From Lophium mytilinum (lineage: Eukaryota), in contig MU004184.1 in NCBI GenBank assembly GCA_010093605.1, forward strand, positions 878,801 through 942,800: a DNA stretch of 64,000 bases, written 5' to 3'. Positions within the stretch are counted from its first letter, which is position 1. Each line of letters starts with the position of its first letter. Both the position numbers and the translations under genes were made by a program. Of the stretch, positions 4,871-9,619 are shown piece by piece. Below the pieces are notes generated by a model that was not told where the DNA came from, made no database searches, and saw only the letters and a list, made by a program, of their open reading frames with translations.

Positions 4871-6209
4871 TCACTTTGCGCGCTCTAACTTCCGCTTCCT
4901 GGCCTCAGCGTACGCATTGGGAGCCGTTGCGCTGGTCAAAGTGGCCGCTTCTGTCTCGTCTTCGGAGTCGAAAAGAGCGTCGTCGACTTCTTTCTTGTGA
5001 AGAATTCTGCCAACAGACTGCATGTATAAGAACTTTGGGAGGCGCCAGAGGAGGGTGTCGTAGATGGTTGGTTTGGGGATTTCGTCGATCTGAACGTGTT
5101 GTGTTAGAAAGAGTTGGCACAAAGGGCCTAGGTCCACTTACATCGAGCAGGTACTCCTCAGTCTTCCCTTCCTCGGTCTTTTCCTCGATATAGACGTTTC
5201 CGACTGAATCCACGATCATGGTCTTGCCGTTCTCCATCTGTACTCGCTTCTTTGCTCCGACGGGTCCAGAGGTCAGGACTGCTTCGACTGGAGTGCTGAT
5301 GCCGGAGGACCTTGCCCCCTTCGCGGCCTTGCCATTCTTGGCTTTCCGTGACTCCTTCTCTTGGTTGCGCTTTTGCCGTCTATTCATGAGAACACCCTCC
5401 TGAGGCTCGTCGCCATTGGAGGGCGTCTCCCAACCCTGCGAGGCCGGGGTCCCGTTCACTCCTGGAATGCCCCCAATGCCCGATTCGTCTCCCCACGCCG
5501 TCCTCCTCGCGTTTCTGATGTACCTCTCGACAAATTCGCGGTGTCGCTTCCAGCTCAAGATCAGAGTGCCATAGTGCACCGCACCGCCACCAACGACAAG
5601 CAGGCCCAGCAGCACAGAGCCCAAGCCGGGCCTGAAGCGAGTATAGTAGTAATTCGTGCCCCTCCACTTGGGGAAGCCGTTGCGGAGGAAGTGGTCGTAG
5701 CGCTCGCGCGAGGGGCCCTTGAGGATCTCGACAATGACAGTGAGGCGCTGGTAGCGCGGCGTGGCCTCCTTCACAAAGGCATCAATCTCTTTCTTCGAGG
5801 GTTGGCCCTTGCGCACCGTGACGCCGGGCTTCTTTTTCTTGTCGGCGGCCTTTGCCTTGGGCACCTTGCCATAGTTGGCGATGAAGACCTGGCGGGCCTT
5901 GTCCGGGTGGGTCTCGCGCGACTTCTTGCGGTAGGCCTTGATGATCTGGTCCTGGGTGGCGGAGGGGGTGATATCGAGCAGGTCGTAGAAGCTCACATCG
6001 GCACCCTCGTGGGCGACGACCTCGTCGCGGACACGGAAGATTTCGTGATCTAGCGGTGGAGAAGAAAAAAAAACGGTTAGCTTTGCGGCTGCGGCGTCAC
6101 ACACGTAATTGCACACGCGAGAGGAGCAATGCGTACCTTCTTTCTCCCAGGCAGCGGCGAGCGAGACGAGCAGGCCCAGCACGAGGGCGAGCAGTGCGTG
6201 CGGCTTCAT
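4871..6209 (-). CDS. erj5: ER-membrane DnaJ/J-domain co-chaperone (Erj5-like)
   Basis: Signal peptide MKPHALLALVLGLLVSLAAA, W-x-K-E-D-H-E-I-F, J domain with HPD (THPDK), RERYDHFLRNGFPKWRGTNYYYTRFRPG, then a TM helix. Introns 6050-6136 and ~5091-5141. Confidence 0.85.
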
Positions 6210-6898
6210 TGCGGCGTTGGGGTGGTGGTGTCCTGGGCGAAGTGGTGAATGTCGCGACTTCGACTCCGGATGGAAGAGATGCAGGGTGGACGGAACGGTC
6301 CCTGTGCGTCTGTAGTGAACCCGTAGGCCACCAGCGTCGTCCAACGTGGCCCAATCGCGCAGGCAGCCGGCGGCGAATGGCAATGCAGCAGCAGGAGCCG
6401 GCGTGTATATGTATCTGCTGGCTGTCCCGCAGTTTCTCGTCGCTACAACTTCTCGTCGACTTGCGGTGGTGCTGCTGCTGCTGTCGTCGTCTCTTCTGAG
6501 GCAGCGTGGCCTCTGGCAAAATTGGGCCCGTGAGTGGCTGAAGTGGATCTTTGTCTTGGGCCTCGCCTGCCAGTGTGCCAGATTACCGCGTCCAGTGGCT
6601 TGGGTTCTCCTTGAATTAGCAACAGGGGGCTGAGCAGCCGCTCCCCTAACAAATTCCTCGTATCGGCCTTCGCACTGCTCGCATTCTTTCAAGCTTCGAA
6701 AGCAACACCACAAGACACTCTCACCCGGCCGCGTCACCATTGTTCGCACCTCCACGCACTTGTAGGCTGCCACTCTCTCTTTATTCTCATCCATTCCGTC
6801 TGCTACATCTGGTATCACTCCCCATTGTTCCGTCCCGACACCTTCCCGACACCAACGACACCACCGACATTGCTCCGTCATTTCATCAGCAGCTAATC

Positions 6899-7549
6899 AT
6901 GGCCCCTTTAATAGATATCGACGACCAGCCCTCGGTCCTCCCTACATCTCACACTACTCATATTGAGCCCGACCAGCCCCAGCAGTCTGCAGCCCCTCGC
7001 TCACACTTCCACACCGCCATGTCCCGCCTCAACATCCCGCTCGACGCCCTCACCTCCAGAATGAACTTTTCCGGCCGCTTCGAGGGCCTGCGCTCGCAGT
7101 CTGTCACCTCGAGGTTTGCCAACCTGAAACCCGTGTCAGAGTTCTTCGACGTCAAGCGCATCTCGAAACCCGCCAACTTTGCTGAAGCCCAGAGCCGGGT
7201 CAACTACAATTTGGGTTACTTCTCCAGCAACTATGCCGTAGTCCTCGTCATGCTGGTCATCTACAGCCTGCTCACAAACAAAACCCTGCTGTTCGTCATC
7301 GCCCTCACCATCGGAGGCATGTACGGCATTGGCAAGCTCGGGGGCAACGATCTCGAGATTGGCACCTTCCGCGCCACCACTTCGCAGCTCTACACCGCCC
7401 TGCTCGTGATATGTGTCCCGCTCGGCATTTACGCTTCGCCCTTTGCCACTTTCCTGTGGCTCATTGGTGCCAGTGGCGTCACTATTCTCGGCCATGCCAC
7501 TTTCATGGACAAGCCAATCGAATCAGCTTTTTCCGAGGAGGCGGTCTAG
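6899..7549 (+). CDS. yip3: Prenylated Rab acceptor 1 (PRA1/Yip3) family protein; alternative start at 7019
   Basis: MSRLNIPLDALTSR, RFANLKPVSEFFD, SRVNYNLGYFSSNY, four hydrophobic segments, C-terminal GHATFMDKPIESAFSEEAV. Intronless. Confidence 0.9.
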   Translation: MAPLIDIDDQPSVLPTSHTTHIEPDQPQQSAAPRSHFHTAMSRLNIPLDALTSRMNFSGRFEGLRSQSVTSRFANLKPVSEFFDVKRISKPANFAEAQSRVNYNLGYFSSNYAVVLVMLVIYSLLTNKTLLFVIALTIGGMYGIGKLGGNDLEIGTFRATTSQLYTALLVICVPLGIYASPFATFLWLIGASGVTILGHATFMDKPIESAFSEEAV

Positions 7550-7575
7550 GTGGTCGGCCGCGAACTCCATACGCT

Positions 7576-9081
7576 ATGCCCCCATGGGGAAGACCACCAG
7601 GGGGCCAGGGGAGGAGGAGAGGGGATTGGGAGAGACCGGCGGAGGGTGTGTACAGATTTCAAGAACTAGACAGCGATGAAGACGGCTTGCACGGTGTTGC
7701 TTTGGATCCGAGCATGCAAAAGGGCAGACCACCCTCGTTCAACCCTGACGAATTATACTTTAACGACATGGACCCAAGGGCGTGGGAACAAATGGTTACA
7801 GAGCGAGACAGACTGGCGTATGGGGATGTTTATGACCACTCTGAGGATGAAGACGGCTATTTTGAGGAAGGCGGAGGCGCAATTGTGCACCTTGCTCCAT
7901 TGGACCAGGAGGAGGTGCTCTTTCAAAGAGTGTTAGACAAGATTAGGAGAGCTAGGGGGACTGGCAAGCCAAATGTGGCTTTGACGCAGGAAGAGTTGGA
8001 GGCTTATGAAGCGAGGATACTGCGAAACCAACAGGTCCCGGCGCCTGCAGCGCGCCCGGCTGCCAAAATCAAAAATACTAGCTCCACGCCTACCAGCGCC
8101 AGCAGTAGCACTCGGTCGAAAAACGCCCAGCGGAGGACTTCAATTTTCTCGTCGCCGAAGCCAGTCAAGAACAAGTCCAGTGGCAGTGGAAAGAAACGTG
8201 TGTCTTCCGGCCAACTGGACAGTACTCCAGTACCCGCACCGGCCCCCGGCTTCATGATTCCAGGACCTGACGGACAACCAATGTATGCGCCTATCACGTA
8301 CAATCCCCGCGGTCCCCAATCTCGTTCTGCGCGTTCTATCTCCTCTCATTCCCGGCCTGGCTCCCGTTCGCCGTCACTTAGCAGTCGGAATGGCAATCAT
8401 CCTTCGACGCCTCCTCGAGAAGCTCCAGGAGCGTTCCCGAGTGACTCTCCTCAACATTACGAAAACGTAACGCCTCCGGTTCAGAAGTCACGCCAGTCCT
8501 CGTACCCACCCCGCCAGAACTCGTTTCTAGAAGACGCCGACTGGATCCAGTCTGCTCGAAGTCGGTCTGACCCCTCTGCTCTCCACCAACTTCCACTTCA
8601 ACCCTCGCCTCAGCTGGTACCTTTTCCCGTATCGCCTTACCAGCACTACAACGCGGATCCTTATCAATATATGCCTCAGTCAGCACCTTCAATGACCCCG
8701 TCATCAGTTCAACCCCAATCGCAGCCCCAGGTTGCTTCCCAATATGCTCGGGATCGCCGCTTGGGTGCAGCCGCGTCTGATAATTACATCAACATGCCGC
8801 GTCGTGTGCCTGTGCCGAACCAGCGAGCGAGCATGCAGAGCAGCTACTCGGATCCAGCACTCGGCTACAAGGCAAGCGGGCTGCGAGACGAACTCAGCGA
8901 CGATGACGACGATGACGGACAGCACGGTGTCCTGGTCGATGTCGTACAAGAAACAGGATCGGGCCCGGGATACAACGTCAACGTGACCAAACCTACCGGG
9001 CCTGGTAGTGGCAGCGGAGGCGGCAACAGTGGTGGAGGCTCTGGAGGAGGCGAGCGGAGGAGAAGAGGGAGGAGGAAGTAG
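7576..9081 (+). CDS. Hypothetical, largely disordered Ser/Pro-rich protein directly downstream of yip3 in the -1 frame
   Basis: Stop-free frame from at least 7411 to 9081, first ATG after the yip3 stop at 7576. Helical block EEVLFQRVLDKIRRARGTGKPNVALTQEELEAYE. Basic C-terminus ERRRRGRRK. Confidence 0.75.
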   Translation: MPPWGRPPGGQGRRRGDWERPAEGVYRFQELDSDEDGLHGVALDPSMQKGRPPSFNPDELYFNDMDPRAWEQMVTERDRLAYGDVYDHSEDEDGYFEEGGGAIVHLAPLDQEEVLFQRVLDKIRRARGTGKPNVALTQEELEAYEARILRNQQVPAPAARPAAKIKNTSSTPTSASSSTRSKNAQRRTSIFSSPKPVKNKSSGSGKKRVSSGQLDSTPVPAPAPGFMIPGPDGQPMYAPITYNPRGPQSRSARSISSHSRPGSRSPSLSSRNGNHPSTPPREAPGAFPSDSPQHYENVTPPVQKSRQSSYPPRQNSFLEDADWIQSARSRSDPSALHQLPLQPSPQLVPFPVSPYQHYNADPYQYMPQSAPSMTPSSVQPQSQPQVASQYARDRRLGAAASDNYINMPRRVPVPNQRASMQSSYSDPALGYKASGLRDELSDDDDDDGQHGVLVDVVQETGSGPGYNVNVTKPTGPGSGSGGGNSGGGSGGGERRRRGRRK

Positions 9082-9391
9082 TATCTATTTTCTGCATGTT
9101 CTTCTGTTCTATTCGGGTCATTGGTTCGCGTAGTCCGAGCGAATGATCTGAGTTTTATTTTTGTCTTTAGTGATGCTTTTTTTGTGCTTCGGAAAGAAAA
9201 CTCCCCTAAGGTGATTGGCGCTTCGGGGCTTTTTGGGTGCATAGTAGGCATAGAAATTCCGTGGCCGGTTGGTACACGATGTGGCGAGGGAGAGCGAATG
9301 ATTATTTTGAAATCTTCGATAAGGTGCCTGTGACATGGTTCGATATGCTTGTGAGCACTGTGACCTAGTCTTGAACACCGTTTAGTAGCTA

Positions 9392-9619
9392 CAGTACTGA
9401 GCCATAAGTCTGGGCACACAGAATTATTATAGTTCGGCTCCAATCTTGCGCAACTAACAAGACTGAGAGGAGTATCCCGGCCATTCAATAGACAGTGAGT
9501 CAAGCAGCAGTCTGAGTTACACTACCTAGACCTTGACATTGCGTCTAGATGTTTCAAAGCGTAGGGAGGTACCCCAAGCAGTGGTAAATGGGTGGACATA
9601 GACTTATGGCCTGTGACTG
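9392..9619. mobile_element. Tc1/mariner-type MITE, 228 bp, apparently complete
   Basis: TA|CAGTACTGAGCCATAAGTCT at the left end and AGACTTATGGCCTGTGACTG|TA at the right end form imperfect terminal inverted repeats with CAGT termini and a TA flank on both sides. Related sequence occurs at 13267 and 43221-43323. Confidence 0.7.

Follow-up and report, generated by a model that had tools for sequence, protein, structure and literature searches.

The window analysed here is a stretch of 64,000 nucleotides from Lophium mytilinum, and the features described below lie on its forward strand. The upstream ORF is yip3, a PRA1 gene (Pfam PF03208, E 8.1e-40, 136 bits against a cut-off of 30.1), whose zero-frame coding sequence (7019..7549), delimited with Pfam, tblastn and RNA splicing, encodes a short form of 176 aa (MSRLNIPLD...ESAFSEEAV) and closes with a TAG at 7547-7549. 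An ORF scan offered ATG 6899 as the start, a candidate that we rejected because it falls within a 5'UTR intron (6762..6914, 153 nt, GT..AG) that is spliced out in RNA contigs. The joint runs from 6761 to 6915 in the X1 contig (depth 1559.7) and from 6760 to 6915 in the X4 contig. The actual start is ATG 7019, which after splicing has no further in-frame ATG upstream; in tblastn, residues 1-176 counted from the methionine at 7019 were matched in orthologous loci. Exon 1 of the 5'UTR has a minimum extent of 6576..6761, given that the X4 contig has its first base at 6576 and its splice at 6760/6761, and that the X1 contig is spliced at 6761. The 3'UTR covers approximately 9082..9183 (the X1 contig ends at 9183, the X4 contig at 9218). 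Contig ends are not transcript ends, and these outer limits of exon 1 and of the 3'UTR are hints only.

The second, longer ORF lies in the -1 phase relative to yip3 and is open from stop to stop over 7186-9081. The initial annotation was right in finding this frame open across the end of yip3, but the overlap comprises 361 nt of yip3 from 7186 rather than 139 nt, and 7411 is merely the first ATG in the frame. As it also pointed out, the next ATG beyond the yip3 stop is at 7576, a spacer of only 26 nt. The -1-frame coding part of the long form (7531..9081) would consist of FRGGGLGGRPRTPYA followed by an extension of 501 aa (initially counted as 500), with its stop TAG at 9079-9081, giving a predicted fusion of about 687 aa. 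In this long form, the AUG at 7576..7578 that heads MPPWGRPPGG would be an internal methionine and a possible secondary start. A Pfam search of the 3' ORF identified no domain, with no match better than E 0.77; its composition is of low complexity, rich in serine, proline and arginine. The 3' ORF has 97 homologues, and a profile search matched 414 cluster representatives at E<=0.001. The named homologues are all from Pezizomycotina (Dothideomycetes, Lecanoromycetes, Leotiomycetes and others), many matches being unnamed, and the closest named protein is from Mytilinidion resinicola (82%). A second, word-indexed protein search with the alignment as input returned an essentially unchanged set and no Sordariomycete. 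The multi-class profile matches and an identical junction architecture suggest an indirect tie to the 3' ORF of the Podospora anserina YIP3 gene, PaYIP3, for which -1 frameshifting has been demonstrated (Malagnac et al. 2013, PLoS One 8:e73772; PMC3777964).

[quoted passage not shown] This heptamer departs from X_XXY_YYZ, as the initial annotation had recognised, in that the A-site tRNA would move from UCC to UUC and would need a G-U pair at the middle position; the same argument has been made for the PaYIP3 heptamer (PMC3777964). A 2-nt spacer, GA (7535..7536), which is outside the canonical range of 5-9 nt, separates the shift site from a stem 1 (7537..7568) in which 7537-7540 pair with 7565-7568 and 7541-7546 with 7556-7561, leaving GAA (7562-7564) as a bulge. 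An alternative shift site, A_GCU_UUU with a spacer of 5 nt, would have a more typical geometry; we leave it as an alternative because re-pairing of the GCU P-site tRNA onto AGC would be poor. With stem 1 only 2 nt from the shift site, a Pezizomycotina-specific trans-acting factor may be needed, a speculation that was put forward by the authors of the 2013 study (PMC3777964).

Stem 1 is the minimum-energy fold of the junction, with the yip3 stop codon in its loop, just as had been proposed. Its energy of -14.2 kcal/mol is ordinary against shuffled sequences (z = -0.20, with 82 of 200 shuffles folding at least as well), and because this test was not significant we dropped energy as an argument for the hairpin. 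In an RNAalifold consensus, all 10 pairs of stem 1 are formed in 19/19 sequences, two of them with one-sided changes, and the 3-nt bulge is GAA or GAG in the orthologues. Stem 1 has no two-sided changes among the 19 sequences, since it is nearly invariant and doubly coding, and the compensatory changes that we observed are in a candidate pseudoknot stem 2 proposed here (7549..7598), where GGUGGUC (7549-7555) could pair with GACCACC (7592-7598). Among 17 distinct sequences, the helix 37-42/85-90 is 97.1% paired, and two of the seven pairs are changed on both sides (three cells), although the same sequences carry a broken neighbouring pair. The covariation score of this candidate was attained by 1 of 500 shuffles; stem 1 and candidate stem 2 taken together have 97.9% of their cells paired. 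With a permissive threshold, Rfam returned no more than two matches, both at chance level (15-17 bits, where the gathering scores are 70 and 160).

The signal that exceeds chance lies in conservation, as every orthologue examined retains the phase, the shift site and stem 1. We retrieved 22 orthologous loci from metagenome DNA of uncultured, Dothideomycete-like fungi, 21 of them with upstream DNA, and in every one of these 21 YIP3 is located immediately upstream on the same strand. The yip3 stop and the position of the ATG are separated by 26 nt in 15 loci and by 29 nt in the other 6, and therefore every locus has the -1 phase. In 22/22 rows the -1 frame is open from at least 25 nt upstream of the yip3 stop, and no in-frame ATG occurs within the open -1 part upstream of that stop in any of 21 orthologues. 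In one locus (L016) a -1-frame TGA ends 25 nt ahead of the yip3 stop, which restricts the shift to a 25-nt window that includes the U5 run. Variable phase and spacing with intervening -1-frame stops, which the initial annotation regarded as speaking against its reading, are thus not what the orthologous loci display. As for the shift site, GCTTTTTC is unchanged in all 22 rows, the U5 run included, and the final codon is UCC in 19 of them and UCA in 3.

Both peptides that flank the ATG are also conserved, and so is the trans-frame peptide, the 15 codons upstream of the AUG being open in every sequence. Of the 21 loci, 17 retain an equivalent of AUG 7576; L005 has ACG in its place, L019, L020 and L022 have TCG, and in these four PPWGRP... 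continues past the lost ATG. In the annotated models of Acarospora, Cirrosporium and Pyrenula, FFRGGGLGGRPRTP[YH]D is followed by L, T or V, not M. The predicted suppression of synonymous variation was found across the last ten yip3 codons: third-position entropy over the last 9-10 codons drops to 0.18-0.20 bits against a mean of 0.93, and, in an analysis that used 18 of the 22 rows, these are the two lowest of 168 windows. The junction DNA is near-invariant although the tails are merely 33-56% identical. Codon-position entropy over the 26-nt spacer and the first 10 tail codons did not separate the frames, a test that could not discriminate because the region is too short and constrained by structure.

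Concerning the RNA, the X1 and X4 contigs, which come from two studies and are spliced at the 5'UTR intron, stay unspliced at the junction and cross 7549 and 7576 without a joint; an X5 contig bridges the junction too. No indel near 7528-7532 is listed in four RNA runs, in contigs that drop rare variants. Such contigs cannot prove a single transcript nor exclude rare isoforms, and the X1 contig extends more than 3 kb into upstream genes. Stretches without cover in X5 and X6 are low-depth gaps, and we left them out of the evidence.

We consider it very probable that the locus forms a single gene, orthologous to PaYIP3, with one mRNA and a -1 frameshift near the end of YIP3 that leads to a fusion. 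A single mRNA with a spliced 5'UTR intron would cover both ORFs. Most ribosomes would make the 176-aa YIP3/PRA1 membrane protein (7019-7546) and terminate at TAG 7547, while a minority would slip back by one base on U_UUU_UCC. The slip would be promoted by the structure that begins 2 nt downstream, the bulged stem 1, and a pseudoknot formed with 7592-7598 probably adds to it. The slipped ribosomes would then read the -1 frame to 9081 and produce a protein of about 687 aa in which a long tail follows the PRA1 body. The initial annotation had suggested such a fusion, with the SEEAV tail replaced by FRGGGL... and a disordered extension, and the experiments in Podospora together with the comparative data support it. 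A frameshift is required to account for the conserved phase, the open -1 frame, the ATG lost in 4/21 loci and the conserved trans-frame peptide. For this fungus we infer -1 frameshifting, and with it a frameshift efficiency and a slip by one or by two tRNAs.

Could the two ORFs instead be two cistrons? The 3' ORF would then be translated from AUG 7576, by termination-reinitiation or from a transcript that starts within yip3, and no fusion would be made. This AUG does head a conserved MPPWGRPPGG in the window and in the 17 loci that keep it, the same peptide with its AUG occurs in annotated proteins of Botrytis and of lichen fungi, and the continuous RNA cover is as compatible with overlapping or dicistronic transcripts as with a single transcript. 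However, the replacement of the AUG by ACG or TCG leaves the flanking coding sequence in place, three other classes have L, T or V at the position, the 15 open codons upstream of the AUG encode a conserved peptide in every sequence, and the phase is fixed across loci; the tagged product seen in P. anserina is as large as the fusion (PMC3777964). We regard this explanation as unlikely. In several public models, the yip3 stop is assumed to be spliced out with a small or unconventional intron, which brings the two frames together: P0058, P0061, P0082 (Pleosporales), P0121, P0181 and P0188 connect PRA1 and tail by predicted introns. Yet the junctions of these models are mutually inconsistent, either skipping PPWGRP or entering the -1 frame upstream. 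The X1, X4 and X5 contigs are unspliced there, though a rare isoform would escape contigs, and 12 P. anserina cDNAs are likewise unspliced at the junction (PMC3777964), making an intron very unlikely. Fixed phase, a dispensable ATG, the conserved peptide and unspliced RNA are the reasons why we see reinitiation, an internal promoter and splicing as improbable main routes.

Slippage of the RNA polymerase on the T5 run, by which a minority of mRNAs would gain or lose one U and have the tail in frame, would make use of a conserved U5 run that is correctly placed. Against this, five Us are fewer than the run lengths known for transcriptional slippage. The four RNA runs list no indel at the site, the P. 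anserina cDNAs agree with the gene (PMC3777964), and the conserved downstream structure would be left unexplained; polymerase slippage is thus even less probable than an intron. Finally, yip3 and the 3' ORF might be unrelated neighbours, with phase and hairpin coincidental. The hairpin energy is indeed ordinary, and in G+C-rich DNA an ATG is often preceded by a short open stretch of its frame. This reading is refuted by adjacency and phase kept in 21/21 loci, by the open frame and by the suppressed synonymous variation, and the near-invariant junction DNA next to such divergent tails also argues against it, so that we give it hardly any weight.

A variation on the frameshift reading would be that Dothideomycetes make three products: the short YIP3, the fusion and, in addition, a free tail of 501 aa from AUG 7576. 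Reinitiation 26 nt past the YIP3 stop would give the free tail, or else an internal start site would; these are the two alternatives of the initial annotation, which are disfavoured as the main route by the loss of the ATG and might serve here as an additional one. We find this doubtful. If true, the two processes, frameshifting and reinitiation, would be in competition at a single pseudoknot. The window and most Dothideomycete loci have an AUG right after stem 1, which other classes lack.

Returning to the frameshift itself, the locus is a further orthologue of the published YIP3 case and no new kind of system. It adds independent comparative support, 21 uncultured Dothideomycete-like loci and a 25-nt bound on the shift window. 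It also carries a warning for annotation, as the annotated relatives examined list the tail either as a "hypothetical protein" of its own or as fused to PRA1 via invented introns.

Conservation of the YIP3 frameshift arrangement across Pezizomycotina was described with PaYIP3 (PMC3777964), a case summarised in a review (Atkins et al. 2016; PMC5009743). In the Podospora genome paper of 2008, 14 genes are mentioned as candidates for recoding (PMC2441463). [quoted passage not shown] A GFP-tagged long form of 88 kDa was detected in vivo from the wild-type allele, and in a yeast dual reporter, with readings of 1% vs 0.3%, the sequence gave about 1% frameshifting (PMC3777964). The L. mytilinum locus resembles it in having a YIP3/PRA1 5' ORF and, in the -1 frame, a longer 3' ORF with poor conservation and no domain, in U_UUU_UCC at codon 170/171 with the 2-nt spacer and the bulge in stem 1, and in a 5'UTR intron with unspliced RNA over the junction. 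It differs in belonging to another class (the relatives of the window are Dothideomycetes), in the length of the intron (153 nt vs 173 bp), in the predicted fusion (about 687 aa vs 61.6 kDa) and in the AUG just 3' of stem 1, shared with most Dothideomycete loci. Moreover, the long protein was detected in P. anserina, whereas here it is predicted from DNA and RNA contigs.

Fungal polycistronic transcripts, reportedly described by Gordon et al. in PLoS One in 2015, are said to hold two conserved ORFs on one RNA that are translated separately, with neither a fixed phase nor a conserved junction. The locus described here, in contrast, has a conserved phase, a conserved junction peptide and a dispensable AUG. 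The 1a/1b junction of IBV (U_UUA_AAC, a 6-nt spacer and an H-type pseudoknot) is similar in that the -1 slip takes place just ahead of a stop. With canonical viral signals the locus shares a G+C-rich stem 1, a possible stem 2 formed by the loop, and a short first and a long last loop, but the YIP3 heptamer departs from X_XXY_YYZ and its spacer is 2 nt instead of 5-9. In the yeast assays reported, the IBV heptamer was not stimulated by the PaYIP3 pseudoknot in the way that it is by the pseudoknot of IBV itself (PMC3777964). PEG10/Edr and Ma3 (PNMA) are mammalian cellular genes that likewise extend a protein by -1 frameshifting, and the Edr pseudoknot has a 3-nt bulge too (PMC3777964). However, these genes are retroelement-derived and use canonical tandem slippage, while YIP3, as described in the 2013 study, has no such origin (PMC3777964). 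Its discoverers present YIP3 as the first eukaryotic gene, cellular and not of retroelement origin, in which -1 frameshifting lengthens the protein (PMC3777964).

The yip3 reading frame encodes a protein of the PRA1 family (PF03208, E 8.1e-40), and direct reading of the sequence confirmed what the initial annotation had described at its 3' end. The last codons are GCT TTT TCC GAG GAG GCG GTC, with a run of five T at 7528-7532, the stop codon TAG lies at 7547-7549, and the first ATG of the following frame, which is in the -1 phase, is found at 7576, 26 nt past the TAG. This -1 frame is open from stop to stop over 7186-9081 and measures 501 aa from ATG 7576. We consider it very probable that a minority of ribosomes shift by -1 at the U run and continue translating to 9081, which would join YIP3 to the product of the -1 frame (the tail) in a fusion of ~687 aa, and that the remaining ribosomes would terminate at 7547 to give YIP3 alone. 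A tandem slip would produce the junction ...AFSR and require G-U pairing at the second base of UUC; a slip in the P site only would produce ...AFFR.

The 5'UTR contains a GT..AG intron of 153 nt (6762-6914), spliced in RNA contigs of the same organism (X1) and of a relative (X4). The ATG at 6899-6901, the first of the long yip3 ORF, falls within this intron and no other in-frame ATG is left upstream of 7019 after splicing. Therefore, YIP3 begins at ATG 7019 and is 176 aa long, and the ORF-based model of 216 aa is ~40 residues too long. Upstream of yip3, the minus strand carries a long open frame (4905-6896), the translation of which includes a stretch that we take to be J-domain-like (...FYDLLDI...AYRKKSRETHPDK...); the frame probably belongs to a gene of the DnaJ type that has introns and is transcribed divergently. 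An X1 contig merges this gene with the YIP3 transcript.

An alignment-based metagenome scan yielded 22 orthologous loci, one of which (L021) has no upstream DNA. YIP3 is directly upstream on the same strand in 21/21 of the others, with the match cut at residue 82 in L008 and in two pieces in L006. In the latter (L006:155-681) residues 1-37 and 38-176 are in different frames, pointing to an indel, or an intron within the coding sequence, not shared by the other loci. The yip3 stop and the codon aligned with ATG 7576 are 26 nt apart in 15 loci and 29 nt apart in six (L006, L010, L015, L016, L017, L018), the longer spacers having two different 3-nt inserts, one in the loop of the hairpin discussed below and one after its stem; either length puts the tail in the -1 phase. 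Variable phase and spacing with -1-frame stops in orthologues had been named as evidence against slippage; the phase is -1 in all 21 loci, and in 22/22 rows, window included, the open stretch of the -1 frame begins 25 nt or more ahead of the yip3 stop. The closest upstream stops in that frame end 25 nt (L016), 34 nt (L006) and 37 nt (L019, L022) before it, and the one in L016 confines any frame change to a 25-nt stretch that holds the U5 run. The junction DNA is nearly invariant from TCA GCT TTT TCC through the PPWGRPPG codons, while the tails are just 33-56% identical. The suppressed synonymous variation anticipated at the 3' end of yip3 was also found: among 18 full-length YIP3 sequences (leaving out L006 as split, L008 as cut, and L009 and L013 as assumed duplicates) third-position entropy has a mean of 0.93 bits but drops to 0.18-0.20 bits over the final 9-10 codons, which give the two lowest values among 168 windows. 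A test of codon positions in the spacer gave no information on frame.

The hairpin proposed by the initial annotation is indeed the minimum-energy fold of 7533-7575, with the yip3 stop codon within its loop. Its stem (stem 1) pairs 7537-7540 with 7565-7568 and 7541-7546 with 7556-7561, leaving a GAA bulge, and its energy of -14.2 kcal/mol is ordinary for the composition (z -0.20; an equal or better fold in 82/200 shuffles). RNAalifold, applied to 19 aligned junctions, 17 of them distinct (L008, L009 and L013 were left out as identical there), formed all 10 pairs in every sequence. Covariation was not observed in this stem: changes are one-sided in two pairs (U-G to U-A, C-G to U-G), and no pair has two-sided ones. 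By complementarity, the loop segment GGUGGUC (7549-7555) could pair with GACCACC (7592-7598) as a candidate stem 2, and the two stems would form an H-type pseudoknot whose first loop is 2 nt long. Pairing with stem 2 added holds in 97.9% of cells. Two stem 2 pairs have two-sided changes (U-A to C-G in L003, G-C to A-U in the L019 group; three cells in total), 1/500 column shuffles reached the covariation score, and pairing was 32-67% in slid registers. Nonetheless, support for this candidate stem is modest, because in every sequence with a two-sided change an adjacent pair is broken, and the 3' arm encodes Arg-Pro-Pro. No Rfam family matched the junction element.

Homologues of the tail numbered 97 at E<=0.001 in a word-indexed protein search and 414 cluster representatives in an exhaustive profile search, and no Pfam domain was found in it. 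The named relatives all belong to Pezizomycotina; Mytilinidion resinicola (82%) is the nearest, and many Pleosporales, lichen-forming fungi and Botrytis come after it. In most of them the tail is annotated as a hypothetical protein in its own right, with its start at MPPWGRPPGG or, further in, at MEE..., and at least six models (P0058, P0061, P0082, P0121, P0181, P0188) fuse PRA1 to the tail via predicted introns with mutually inconsistent junctions. A slippage join is absent from every annotated model examined (among P0003-P0098, P0121, P0181 and P0188). Annotations of these relatives should therefore be read with caution, as they file the tail as a separate protein or join it to PRA1 by invented introns.

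Could the tail be reached by other routes? Independent initiation at AUG 7576 as the sole route seems unlikely to us. The Met of MPPWGRPPGG is kept in most Dothideomycete-like loci; the aligned codon is ACG in L005 and TCG in L019, L020 and L022, where the frame continues SPPWGRP..., and models from other classes (Acarospora, Cirrosporium and Pyrenula) have L, T or V, not M, directly after the trans-frame peptide FFRGGGLGGRPRTP[YH]D. Within the open -1 part before the yip3 stop, 0/21 orthologues have an in-frame ATG. Where the Met is missing, gene callers begin the protein at the downstream MEE... Met. Because most Dothideomycete loci, unlike other classes, retain the AUG that follows stem 1, the tail might also be made as a free protein alongside the fusion, which we regard as doubtful.

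Assembled RNA contigs from one run of the same organism (X1) and three runs of a relative ~97% alike (X4-X6) were mapped to 6300-9600. The contigs with the spliced 5'UTR intron also cross 7549/7576 without joint or indel, reaching 9183 in X1, and 8384 and then 9218 in X4, and an X5 contig spans 6969-7621. Therefore, the junction is transcribed, and its dominant form is neither spliced nor edited. A cryptic intron joining the yip3 and tail frames, as in the predicted fusions, is very unlikely, transcriptional slippage putting the tail in frame is highly improbable, and coincidence, set beside the adjacency in 21 loci, is scarcely credible. Contig continuity is no proof of a single transcript; the X1 contig also extends >3 kb upstream into other genes. 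Among 40 of the 131 strain differences, the 12 at 7135-7474 are all at yip3-frame third positions. At 9387-9429, six different X1 contigs (96-1796 nt) match only ~35-40 nt with 2-3 mismatches and then diverge from the window; this is a short sequence, for instance a small repeat, that recurs in many transcripts or loci.

Ribosomal slippage at this gene has a published precedent. As described by Malagnac, Fabret, Prigent, Rousset, Namy and Silar 2013, PLoS One 8:e73772 (PMC3777964), PaYIP3 of Podospora anserina combines a YIP3 5' ORF with a 3' ORF in the -1 frame that is restricted to Pezizomycotina. It has the shift site U UUU UCC at codon 170, a stem-loop/pseudoknot that starts 2 nt downstream and in which stem 1 carries a highly conserved bulge of 3 nt, a 5'UTR intron of 173 bp, and 12 cDNAs identical to the gene at the junction. 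The same paper reports an 88-kDa GFP-tagged long form from the wild-type allele and frameshifting of 1% in a yeast dual reporter, versus 0.3% when the control was out of frame; on its own, the short form could complement the deletion, but the long form had no activity. Pezizomycotina share the arrangement, in which the pseudoknot shows compensatory changes, and it is +1 in Capnodiales and Ophiostomatales (PMC3777964). The case is summarised in a review (Atkins et al., 2016; PMC5009743), and the 2008 Podospora genome paper gives its recoding candidates only as supplementary material (PMC2441463). Like PaYIP3, the window has U_UUU_UCC (7528-7534, Phe171), a GA spacer followed by a bulged stem 1 from 7537, a 5'UTR intron and a junction that is unspliced in the RNA contigs. 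This feature-by-feature match, together with the comparative evidence, supports the -1 slip put forward in the initial annotation. The gene is a further orthologue of the already known YIP3 -1 frameshift case, to which our comparative evidence is added.
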